Positions 39,301-41,604 of a DNA stretch of 64,000 nt are shown here, one piece after another. The stretch spans positions 13,263-77,262 of the forward strand of contig JAGWXT010000005.1 of assembly GCA_018969715.1 (NCBI GenBank), read 5' to 3'. A program made the position numbers and the translations under genes. The DNA comes from Actinomycetales bacterium. GTDB taxonomy: Bacteria > Actinomycetota > Actinomycetes > S36-B12 > UBA5976. Position 1 is the first letter of the stretch. Every line of letters begins with the position of its first letter. Under the pieces are notes generated by a model that was not told the origin of the DNA, searched no databases, and saw only the letters and a list, made by a program, of their open reading frames with translations.

Positions 39301-40317
39301 ATGCCCACGATGAGGGTCAATCAGGCGATTGCCACCGCACTGGCCGACGAGATGCGCGCCGATGCCTCGGTCATGGTCTTCGGTGAGGACATCGCCGAGG
39401 CTGAGGGCCCGTTCAAGACCTCGGAGGGACTGCTCGCCGAGTTCGGCCCGCTGCGCGTGCGCGACACGCCTATCTCGGAGATGGCATTCACCGGTGCGGC
39501 CGTGGGGGCGGCCACCTTGGGCATGCGTCCGGTCATCGAGATCATGTTCGTCGAGTTCCTCGGGGTCGCCCTTGATGAGCTCGTGACGGAGGCAGCGAAG
39601 TTCCGCTATCTCAGCAATGGCGCGCTCTCGGTGCCGATGGTGGTGCGCGCCTCGGTCGGCAGCGGACTCGGCTTCGGCTGCCAGCACAGCCAGACCCTCG
39701 AGAACTGGGTCAGTGCAACCCCCGGGCTGACGGTGGTCACCATCAGCGATGCTCAGTCCGCGTACGGGCTGATGCGCGCGGCGATCCGCGACCCCGATCC
39801 GGTCATCGTGCTTGAGCCGCGCACCCTCTATGCACGTCGCGGTGAGGTGACGACGGGCGAGGCAGGCATCCTGCCGCTGCGTCGGGCCCGCACGGTGCGC
39901 CCGGGCGCGGACATCACCGTGGTCGCAATGGGCCAGACGGTGGGCATCGCCCTCGATGCCGTGGCAGCCTGCGACGTGGACGCTGAGGTGATCGACCTCG
40001 CCACCCTGTCACCGTGGGATCGCAGTACGGTGCTCACCTCCGTGCATCGCACGGGGCGGCTCATCGTCGTCGAGGAGGCACCCCTGACGGGGGGCTGGGG
40101 GGCACAGGTCGTTGCGACCGCCGCCAGTGAGGCCTTCAGTGCGCTGACCGCCGCCCCATTCCGGATCACCACCCCCGATGTTCCCGTCCCCTATGCCAAG
40201 CACCTGGAGGCTCGGTTCGTGCCGACCGTCGAGGATGTCGCACGCCAGTTGCGCACCTATCTCGACACCGGCGCGGTGCCGCAGCCCTGGTGGGTCCTGG
40301 AAGGAGTGTCCGCATGA
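39301..40317 (+). CDS. 2-oxoacid (pyruvate/acetoin-type) dehydrogenase E1 component, beta subunit
   Basis: 338 aa. VFGEDIAE..GPFKTSEGL..FGP.RVRDTPISE and the transketolase C-terminal-like half. AAGGGAGAAGG RBS. Confidence 0.85.
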   Translation: MPTMRVNQAIATALADEMRADASVMVFGEDIAEAEGPFKTSEGLLAEFGPLRVRDTPISEMAFTGAAVGAATLGMRPVIEIMFVEFLGVALDELVTEAAKFRYLSNGALSVPMVVRASVGSGLGFGCQHSQTLENWVSATPGLTVVTISDAQSAYGLMRAAIRDPDPVIVLEPRTLYARRGEVTTGEAGILPLRRARTVRPGADITVVAMGQTVGIALDAVAACDVDAEVIDLATLSPWDRSTVLTSVHRTGRLIVVEEAPLTGGWGAQVVATAASEAFSALTAAPFRITTPDVPVPYAKHLEARFVPTVEDVARQLRTYLDTGAVPQPWWVLEGVSA

Positions 40318-41312
40318 GCGTGCAGCTGGATCGGCGGTCGGAGATTCGCGCGGATGCCCGCGCTGCCTATGCCCGCATGGTGGAGATCCGCTTGTTCGAG
40401 GAGCAGGTGAACGAGTTGTTCGCCGCCGGACTCGTCCACGGCACGACCCACCTGTGCCAGGGCCAGGAGGCGCTGGACGTCGCACTGGCCGCAGTGCTGC
40501 GTGATGACGACGTGGTGGCGGCGACCTACCGCGGTCACGGCATTGCACTGGCGCTGGGGATGACCCCGGCATCCGTGCTCGCCGAGATCATGGGCCGGTC
40601 AACCGGCTGCACCGGTGGTGTCGGCGGTTCCATGCACCTGGCCGACATGTCGATTGGTCTGCTGCCCACATCGGCGATCATCGGCGCCGGCCTGCCGATC
40701 GCCACCGGTGCCGCACTGGCCTTCCAGACCCGCGGGGAGGACCGGGTTGCGGTGGCGGTCTTCGGCGACGGTGCCTCGAATATCGGAGCCTTCCACGAAT
40801 CGCTGAACATGGCGGCGGTCTGGCGCCTGCCCGTGCTCTTCCTCTGCGACAACAATGTCTACGGCGAGTACAGCCGAATCGATCGGACGACCGCTGTGCT
40901 GGACCTGTCGCGGCGGGCGGCGGGCTATGACATCCCGGGCGAGTCCTTCGATGGCATGGATGTCGACACCGCTCGCACCGCGATCGCAGCCGCGGTCGAC
41001 CGGGCGCGCAATGGCGGTGGACCCTCCCTGCTGGAGGCACGGACCTACCGATTCGCTGGGCACTCCCGCGCCGACAAGGCGCTGTACCGCCCGGAAGGGG
41101 AATTGGAGGAGTACCGCAAGCGCGATCCGATCGCGGTGCGCCGCAGCGCCCTGCTGGCCCAAGGAGTGAGCGAAGGCGAGTTGGCCGCCATCGACGCGCG
41201 CGTGGCCGATGACATCGCGGCGGTGGTTGCCACGGTCTCGGCTGATCCCCTGCCCGACCTGGCAGCGATGTTCGCCAACATCTGGACCGAGCCCGCAGCC
41301 GCGGCGCGATGA
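40314..41312 (+). CDS. 2-oxoacid dehydrogenase E1 component, alpha subunit (TPP-binding)
   Basis: Trimmed to ATG 40314 (ATGA overlap). [8 protein letters not shown], YRGHG and TPP motif [31 protein letters not shown]. Confidence 0.85.
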   Translation: [332 protein letters not shown]

Positions 41313-41364
41313 GTCCCCGCGGCGCGATGTGCATCCGCGGGCCGATTGCACAAGGAGCGACACG

Positions 41365-41604
41365 ATGAAGATGACGGTCAAGTTGCCCAGACTCGGCGAC
41401 ACCGTCGACGAAGTCCATGTCCTGGAATGGCTCAAGCAGCCTGGTGATGTGGTGGCGGTCGGCGATCCCCTGATGAGCGTGGAGACCGACAAGGCGACCG
41501 TGGATGTGCCATCACCGGTCGCCGGGACGCTTGCGGAATGCCTGGTCACCGCAGGTCAGGACATCGCAACCGGGGATCCGGTCGCGGTTCTTGACGCCGA
41601 CTGA
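41365..41604 (+). CDS. stand-alone lipoyl-attachment domain protein (79 aa)
   Basis: Trimmed to ATG 41365 (AAGGAG RBS). MKMTVKLPRLGDTVDEVHVLEWLK..GDPLMSVETDKATVDVPSPVAG with the lipoyl-lysine ETDKA motif. Stops after the domain, with no PSBD or catalytic domain. Confidence 0.8.
   Translation: MKMTVKLPRLGDTVDEVHVLEWLKQPGDVVAVGDPLMSVETDKATVDVPSPVAGTLAECLVTAGQDIATGDPVAVLDAD

Follow-up and report, generated by a model that had tools for sequence, protein, structure and literature searches.

The three 2-oxoacid dehydrogenase complexes have an E2 core as their structural and catalytic centre, and in PRK11892-type PdhB the lipoyl domain is fused to E1 beta while a normal E2 is still present. Non-phosphorylative sugar pathways proceed through a dehydrogenase, a lactonase and an MR/MLE dehydratase, and end either with an aldolase or with a 4-dehydrogenase and a hydrolase. 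Five lipoate-dependent complexes were counted as characterised in a 2018 paper, with LbpA added beyond them (PMC6067878), and the QncN/QncL/QncM and SclQ1-4 glycolyl-acyl carrier protein (ACP) systems use an E1-like thiamine diphosphate (ThDP) enzyme and a lipoyl domain outside the classical complex (PMC6335953). The subject here is a triad of genes for E1 beta, E1 alpha and a free-standing lipoyl carrier, which lies in a 64,000-nucleotide stretch of DNA from a freshwater Actinomycetales bacterium (assembly GCA_018969715.1, contig JAGWXT010000005.1, positions 13,263 to 77,262 of the forward strand; hereafter the window). The triad forms a catabolic module that is conserved, chiefly within Actinomycetota, and is shown by homology to encode a predicted ThDP-dependent alpha2beta2-type E1 with its own free-standing carrier, set in an oxidative non-phosphorylative sugar pathway. 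The pairing of an E1 with a free carrier appears to be a use of lipoic acid that has not been described, and literature searches aimed at the module found no account of it. The triad consists of the following genes:

39301-40317, plus strand: E1 beta, 338 amino acids (aa), of a heterotetramer-type ThDP-dependent dehydrogenase (Transket_pyr 8e-37, Transketolase_C 1e-30)
40314-41312, plus strand: E1 alpha, 332 aa (E1_dh 7e-71, GDG...NN ThDP motif)
41365-41604, plus strand: free-standing lipoyl carrier, 79 aa (Biotin_lipoyl 3e-20)

The window has a G+C content of ~67%, and ~40 of its open reading frames (ORFs) were scanned with Pfam and NCBIfam, which together with blastp labels covered most of the large ORFs. 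An earlier annotation made from the letters alone (the sequence-only reading) had recognised the two E1 subunits, quoted the ThDP motif of the alpha subunit and pointed out that beta precedes alpha; the domain matches and the motif agree with it, and the order is that of essentially all relatives. The likely start of E1 alpha is the ATG at 40314, which overlaps the E1 beta stop codon as ATGA and is also the start in independent gene calls on near-identical metagenome contigs. E1 beta scores 303-310 bits against the NCBIfam pyruvate dehydrogenase (PDH) E1 beta models (PRK09212, 303 against a cut-off of 321; PRK11892, 310 against 454), and E1 alpha scores 326 bits against TIGR03182 (cut-off 394). 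The closest PDB chains are 1ik6 and 1um9_B for E1 beta (~1e-71) and human PDH E1 alpha for E1 alpha (2e-61). The GHS of E1 alpha and the QHSQ of E1 beta, which we take to be the motifs with the catalytic histidines expected for lipoyl acylation, are invariant among the relatives. Database names of the cluster proteins are generic (PDH or alpha-ketoacid dehydrogenase), with one source using acoB or acetoin:DCPIP oxidoreductase beta. The C-terminus of E1 beta (40255-40317) carries a conserved extension of ~19 residues past the canonical Transketolase_C domain, ending ...VPQPWWVLEGVSA. The P.PWW motif of this tail is common to the sugar-linked clade and to a sister clade with a separate E2 catalytic gene, and does not occur in the Aco-type E1 beta or in that of locus L100 (both described below); the extension may be a docking element that replaces the missing subunit-binding domain.

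An alignment scan with E1 beta, taking one genome per species, recovered 80 loci (here numbered with the prefix L) in which E1 beta is 55-72% identical. Nearly all of them belong to Actinomycetota, and one Gemmatimonas and one Acidobacteria metagenome-assembled genome (MAG) are also among them. The module is carried by Nanopelagicales/acI, by many Acidimicrobiia including MAGs named Candidatus Poriferisocius and Spongiisocius, by the Micromonosporaceae Phytohabitans and Asanoa, and by Kribbella, Nakamurella and Rhodoglobus. Triad order was assessed by BLAST, hidden Markov model (HMM) search and manual reading, and E1 beta, E1 alpha and a short lipoyl ORF follow one another in every assessable locus but L086. 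The module is retained in streamlined genomes of 1.35-1.55 Mb (L021, L027), and among cultured organisms it is carried by Kribbella sp. (L034), Phytohabitans kaempferiae (L032), Asanoa iriomotensis (L037) and IMCC26077 (L027). Four MAG records (L028, L029, L031 and L042) are titled Bifidobacterium, three as "Bifidobacterium breve" and one as "uncultured Bifidobacterium sp."; in gene content and order they match loci that bear Nanopelagicaceae or Planktophila labels, and their own taxon labels look wrong.

The 79-aa carrier is, as the sequence-only reading had described it, a lipoyl domain and nothing else: the lipoyl-lysine stands in VETDKATV (VETDKATVDV), and the protein ends after 79 aa with no subunit-binding or catalytic domain. 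An AAGGAG ribosome-binding site precedes its gene by 8 nt, and 27 nt separate its stop codon from the next gene. Against GCV_H (PF01597) the carrier reaches 20.6 bits (4e-4, 36 residues, cut-off 22.2) compared with 72 bits against Biotin_lipoyl, and it matches positions 1-79 of the 464-position model NF008854 (PRK11892 PdhB) at 3e-12. Carrier homologues number 58, mostly of 77-79 aa and down to ~45% identity, and the identical sequence is present in an Actinomycetales bacterium MAG record and 25 metagenome contigs; a search of a representative library with the carrier was uninformative, as multi-domain E2 chains dominate it. The canonical (T/V)ETDKA surroundings of the lysine, together with the conserved motifs of E1, lead us to infer that the carrier would be lipoylated and then acylated by E1. 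In Nakamurella lactea the carrier (L087 9180-9414) has ETAKA in place of ETDKA at the lipoyl-lysine.

A short lipoyl ORF could also be a frameshifted piece of a normal E2, a case in which, by the sequence-only reading, nothing novel would be left. This is ruled out, because a stand-alone lipoyl gene of 72-79 aa is kept 3' of E1 alpha in ~80 divergent loci, with its length conserved and unrelated genes directly downstream. Long lipoyl ORFs in L032 and L087 were likewise discarded as out-of-frame open stretches of high-GC DNA, the true genes there encoding ~75-77 aa. It is also extremely improbable that the set has no special function, being either an ordinary operon of the PDH or acetoin type or the degenerate remnant of one with a pseudogenised E2: the generic PDH and alpha-ketoacid dehydrogenase labels would suit such an origin, but carrier length and gene order are maintained down to ~45% identity across orders, the streamlined genomes included, the sugar context is consistent, and the gene 3' of the carrier is unrelated to E2.

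The claim that neither an E2 core nor an E3 lies in the 64 kb also stands. No E2 or E3 family was assigned among the window ORFs by the Pfam/NCBIfam scans and blastp labels, every ORF of E3 size has an assignment, a phmmer search with two authentic E2 catalytic domains gave no match in the window, and a motif regex for the E3 redox-disulfide signature found no ORF in the window and none in the related loci; E3 genes are in general often unlinked. No PF00198 gene was detected within +/-10 kb of any sugar-context locus (~80), whether by motif regex or by phmmer with authentic catalytic domains. Among the scanned loci PF00198 was detected only in L059 and L079, where a catalytic-only ORF of ~240 aa immediately precedes E1 beta and the genes run E2 catalytic domain, E1 beta, carrier, E1 alpha; such catalytic-only E2 proteins form a small family of 230-270 aa. 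The E1 beta of this sister clade is 56-59% identical to that of the window. The conserved sister cluster runs through ADH/short-chain dehydrogenase/reductase (SDR) genes, phosphoenolpyruvate (PEP)-utilizers, PPDK_N, HAD, catalytic-only E2, E1 beta, 79-aa carrier, E1 alpha and a beta-lactamase-like gene (L059 4528-13545; L079; L098 3468-12268; L099 3375-12474), and is a split-E2 dehydrogenase system whose context suggests that its substrate is activated with ATP or PEP. In L099 a second E1 set, of Aco type and with alpha before beta, lies beside a 366-aa protein in which a lipoyl domain is joined to an alpha/beta-hydrolase (AcoC). In L100 (35-4923), E1 alpha, E1 beta and a 76-aa carrier are preceded by a ferredoxin gene and followed by SDR, ferredoxin and P450 genes, and a catalytic-only E2 (8001-8771) is found 5 kb downstream among thiolase, acyl-CoA dehydrogenase and ChsH2-like genes. 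Since the sister clade with its separate E2 also has stand-alone carriers, these are a wider actinobacterial design, within which the sugar-linked clade stands out by having no catalytic domain linked to it. As the sister clade illustrates, an E2 that is encoded separately is kept in cis where it is used, which supports the E2-less reading of the triad.

The triad belongs to a single large carbohydrate-catabolism island, which extends from position 1 to ~53,000 and has five ribose-type (CUT2) ATP-binding cassette (ABC) importers. A co-directional string runs from the MR/MLE gene through the triad to a PrpD-family gene, and the genes for a family III CoA-transferase and a 476-aa protein are divergent from it; the MR/MLE gene upstream and the divergent CoA-transferase, both named by the sequence-only reading, are confirmed by domain scans. 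The features around the triad are:

35268-36698, minus strand: neutral-ceramidase-fold Zn hydrolase, predicted cytoplasmic, 476 aa (AlphaFold2 model, Foldseek and metal-site motifs)
36714-37868, minus strand: family III CoA-transferase (CoA_transf_3 1e-117)
37869-38022, no strand: divergent intergenic region, with a LacI-type near-palindrome at 37912-37926 and an 18-nt tandem duplication at 37970-38005
38023-39144, plus strand: MR/MLE (enolase superfamily) acid-sugar dehydratase-like protein, the presumed source of the 2-oxo acid (MR_MLE_C 3e-52, MR_MLE_N 3e-14)
41632-43746, plus strand: 704-aa protein of the apionate-lactonase family, putatively a hydrolase of sugar lactones (NCBIfam ApnL 1.9e-30, far below cut-off)
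43746-44585, plus strand: SDR oxidoreductase (adh_short_C2 1e-52)
44763-48801, plus strand: CUT2-type sugar ABC transporter, with permease (44763-45803), binding protein (45916-47070) and double ATPase (47260-48801)
48791-49177, plus strand: RhaM-family sugar mutarotase (TIGR02625 1.7e-18, below cut-off; PF05336 rhaM)
49174-50001 and 49998-50732, plus strand: two SDR oxidoreductases (family-level annotation)
50763-51857, plus strand: LacI-family regulator, towards the end of the co-directional string
51854-53125, plus strand: MmgE/PrpD-family protein, the last gene of the co-directional string
18936-24435, plus strand: distal set of an unknown 371-aa protein, Zn-ADH, three SDRs and an Amidohydro_2 lactonase at 22796-23683 (Pfam; 39-69% identity to L011 cluster genes)

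At the level of family homology, sugar dehydrogenases (SDRs), lactonases (apionate-lactonase-family and Amidohydro_2), an enolase-superfamily dehydratase (MR/MLE), an importer (CUT2 ABC) and RhaM are encoded together. The transporter was assigned from BPD_transp_2 and Peripla_BP_4 in the window and two ABC_tran domains on a near-identical contig. Homologues of the distal set sit within the E1 cluster in other genomes, and its Amidohydro_2 lactonase resembles L-fucono-1,5-lactonase at 2e-34, below the model cut-off. The MR/MLE protein is almost of the same family as PDB entries 3msy, 4h83 and 3no1 (~1e-148), which bear generic names only, and the best named relatives of the CoA-transferase use dicarboxylates (glutarate, oxalate, mesaconate and hydroxymethylglutarate). 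Every specific curated equivalog model consulted for substrate assignment scored far below its cut-off, and no clue to a ligand came from solved structures when these were consulted for the CoA-transferase, the lactonase-like protein and the binding protein.

The adjacent unknown protein of the sequence-only reading can now be placed, the 704-aa protein in the apionate-lactonase family and the 476-aa protein in the neutral-ceramidase fold. The Pfam families Apionate_lact_N/M/C are precomputed on a protein identical to the 704-aa one, for which a sequence search against the PDB returned no relative. The 476-aa protein represents a family of more than 600 matches, and its AlphaFold2 model (pLDDT 82) is matched by Foldseek to the neutral ceramidases 2zws and 4wgk (4e-19 to 3e-17). 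Its invariant SHSH, GCHP, PGE and GY..GGYE motifs align in a profile alignment with the ceramidase GTHTHSGP, FAIHPV, PGEFT and HY...RYE, the Zn site being conserved; because of the fold match and the invariant metal-site motifs, the protein is probably an active cytoplasmic Zn hydrolase.

Several further observations concern the window itself. A second MR/MLE paralogue, 50% identical to the one at 38023-39144, is found at 748-1872, a second apionate-lactonase-family gene (596 aa, minus strand) at 11373-13163, and an MlrC/M81 metallopeptidase-family gene at 24342-25934, M81 genes also being near the triad in ~7 other loci. The tandem duplication at 37970-38005 is exact (GGGATGGGACCGCCGAGC, twice) and directly 5' of the MR/MLE start codon. 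A LacI operator search, carried out to tie the E1 operon to the upstream gene set, gave four matches with one expected, which is not significant, and a promoter and terminator scan was uninformative.

Direct neighbours of the triad were counted in 83 non-redundant loci. The most frequent is the CoA-transferase (26/83), which is divergent and upstream in 19 loci as it is in the window, followed by MR/MLE (21/83, mostly on the same strand) and the ceramidase-like protein (11/83), the last in Acidimicrobiia, upstream on the same strand and either touching E1 beta or overlapping it slightly. The triad can occur without any one of the three. In the 47 loci with full flanks, a CoA-transferase or ceramidase-like gene is within ~9 kb in 32 and neither is in 15. 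Farther out are SDRs, which are near-universal, Amidohydro_2 and PTE-family hydrolases, AP_endonuc_2, GFO/IDH/MocA, LacI, P450 and RhaM; lactonase-type genes (Amidohydro_2, PTE family and apionate-lactonase family) are often near the triad. CitE-like (HpcH/CitE) lyases are present in 19 related loci, and the rhamnose genes RhaA/RhaB/RhaD are near the triad in acI genomes. An all-against-all clustering of neighbour ORFs, meant to reveal an overlooked conserved partner, yielded unannotated "families", which were rejected, as they are apparently antisense or shadow ORFs of known genes.

Under the mechanism that we tentatively favour, and largely infer, the free carrier would receive from E1 the acyl group left by oxidative decarboxylation of a 2-keto(-3-deoxy) sugar acid, would be unloaded without an E2 and would be recycled by an unlinked E3; we hold this mechanism at somewhat less than an even chance. 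The sugar pathway would deliver the 2-keto(-3-deoxy) sugar acid, and E1 would decarboxylate it and reductively acylate the lipoyl-lysine of the 79-aa carrier. With no dedicated E2 core, the gamma-hydroxyacyl thioester would be discharged by intramolecular lactonisation or by a clustered hydrolase to give a chain-shortened 2-deoxy-aldonolactone or acid, and the dihydrolipoyl carrier would be re-oxidised by an E3 encoded elsewhere in the genome. Where it is present, the family III CoA-transferase could re-activate the free acid, which in some genomes a CitE-like acyl-CoA lyase might then cleave. The acyl group would keep its gamma-hydroxyl, so that the thioester could lactonise, and 4-hydroxybutyryl-CoA, a gamma-hydroxyacyl thioester, reportedly lactonises spontaneously (PMC13500679). 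Release as a lactone or by hydrolysis would make an E2 unnecessary, and lactone release would fit the many lactonase-type genes nearby. This mechanism is supported by intact and tightly coupled genes, strong domain scores, invariant E1 motifs, the conserved triad and the lack of PF00198 in cis. Further support comes from the MR/MLE adjacency, the lactonase-type neighbours, the rank of the CoA-transferase as top neighbour and the CitE-like lyases. The earlier suggestion that the MR/MLE enzyme supplies E1 with its 2-keto-3-deoxy substrate agrees with the same adjacency and is kept as a suggestion.

Several points weigh against this mechanism. One group of Acidimicrobiia, with no MR/MLE gene nearby, has only an SDR, a ceramidase-like hydrolase and an ABC importer beside the triad, and the 2-oxo acid may not in every case come from an MR/MLE enzyme. 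If the products are acetyl-CoA and an aldehyde, there is no obvious advantage over the known aldolase route, and the search for the E3 signature, being by motif regex only, is a weakness that counts on the same side. The complex may also be a normal one with its E2 in trans, the housekeeping core or an unlinked catalytic-only E2 unloading the carrier to CoA and yielding an acyl-CoA. We consider this rather unlikely. A catalytic-only E2 family exists and can, as in L100, lie several kb from the E1-lipoyl set, an E3 must come from elsewhere anyway, and the P.PWW tail of E1 beta is common to the E2-bearing sister clade; yet PF00198 is missing within +/-10 kb at all of the ~80 sugar-context loci, though these clusters are otherwise tightly packed, and the carrier has no subunit-binding domain by which it could be tethered to a core.

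The Acidimicrobiia loci without MR/MLE are better accommodated by a cleavage resembling that of acetoin dehydrogenase, in which E1 would not use a 2-oxo acid but would break a C-C bond in a sugar derivative (an alpha-hydroxyketone or a diketone, such as an inosose, a 3-keto sugar or a 5-keto-6-deoxy acid) produced by SDR or GFO/IDH/MocA dehydrogenases, and would load an acetyl, glycolyl or longer acyl group on the carrier. SDRs are near-universal neighbours and GFO/IDH/MocA and AP_endonuc_2 frequent ones, one source labels cluster members acetoin:DCPIP oxidoreductase beta, and in the Qnc/Scl systems an E1-like enzyme moves a ketose C2 unit onto lipoate (PMC6335953). Such a cleavage is nevertheless quite unlikely, in that identity to the Aco-type E1 is just 40-42%, PDH-type E1 models are the best HMM matches and the MR/MLE adjacency points to a 2-oxo acid. 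The related possibility raised by the sequence-only reading, that the cluster is an ordinary acetoin operon with its AcoC and AcoL genes elsewhere, is weakened by the same sequence distance from the L099 Aco-type E1 and by the genomic context.

That reading had further proposed the CoA-transferase or the then-unknown neighbour as a replacement for E2. As an E2 surrogate, the CoA-transferase or the ceramidase-like hydrolase would act directly on the acyl-S-lipoyl carrier, in keeping with the place of the former as top direct neighbour, with the abutting or overlapping ceramidase-like gene in 11 loci and with one or the other being found in 32/47. The proposal is weakened because both are absent within ~9 kb from the remaining 15 full-flank loci, and we know of no family III transferase that uses a protein-bound thioester; it is now very unlikely. 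To return to E2-free release, its most novel form is a further lipoate-dependent system free of an E2 core, in which a sugar-acid-specific E1 loads a diffusible carrier and the hydroxylated acyl thioester releases itself as a lactone or leaves through the ceramidase-fold hydrolase or the CoA-transferase, an unrecognised chain-shortening step in sugar catabolism; so stated, it is possible, if on balance doubtful. If true, it would be used by abundant freshwater acI/Nanopelagicales, by Acidimicrobiia and by soil actinomycetes.

The module is real, widespread and experimentally tractable, and its cultured carriers make it directly testable. If an E1 works with a free carrier without a linked E2, the swinging-arm chemistry would be separable from the core. 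The module would then supply oxidative sugar pathways with a terminal step not recognised so far, and give a role to genes that are now generically labelled.

The relation of the E1 subunits to the Aco, PDH and Bkd types was judged by pairwise identities and HMM scores. The Aco system is similar in having a heterotetramer-type ThDP E1 and a lipoyl acceptor in a peripheral catabolic operon, and its lipoyl-fused part can be non-canonical, for example the 366-aa lipoyl and alpha/beta-hydrolase protein of L099. In contrast, the Aco-type E1 pair of L099 is 40-42% identical (E1 beta 42%) compared with 56-61% within the stand-alone-carrier clades, the window has beta then alpha where Aco has alpha then beta, and the window context is sugar-acid catabolism. 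Neither an AcoC-like fusion nor AcoL was found in the window or in the sugar-linked loci, the AcoC-type fusion occurring only in the second E1 set of L099. In sequence and HMM comparisons the alpha2beta2 E1 proteins of PDH and branched-chain 2-oxoacid dehydrogenase (human, Geobacillus and Thermus) match best, and the window E1 retains its ThDP and active-site motifs; however, the window proteins score below all curated equivalog cut-offs, the lipoyl domain is a separate 79-aa protein, and there is no E2 chain (lipoyl, subunit-binding and PF00198 domains) and no E3 in cis.

A further relative is the sister cluster (L059, L079, L098 and L099), which has the same stand-alone 79-aa carrier and P.PWW tail and differs in its separate PF00198 gene, in the carrier lying between beta and alpha, and in a context other than sugar-acid catabolism. 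PRK11892-type PdhB (NF008854) likewise associates a lipoyl domain with E1, but as a fusion to E1 beta, whereas the lipoyl domain is free in the window. The Qnc/Scl systems have an acyltransferase domain, delivery to ACP and nonribosomal peptide synthetase clusters, and the window module is without all three. GcvH and LbpA are also small stand-alone lipoylated carriers; the window carrier, in contrast, is an E2-type lipoyl domain, and its partner is E1 and not P-protein or an Hdr-like complex. Lastly, the non-phosphorylative L-rhamnose, L-fucose and pentose pathways share with the window a RhaM-family mutarotase, SDRs, an L-fucono-1,5-lactonase-like Amidohydro_2 and MR/MLE. Of the known terminal enzymes of these pathways (2-keto-3-deoxy-acid aldolase, or 4-dehydrogenase and FAH-type hydrolase), none was identified beside the window triad, no FAH-directed search having been made; what stands in their place beside the triad is the E1 and its lipoyl carrier.

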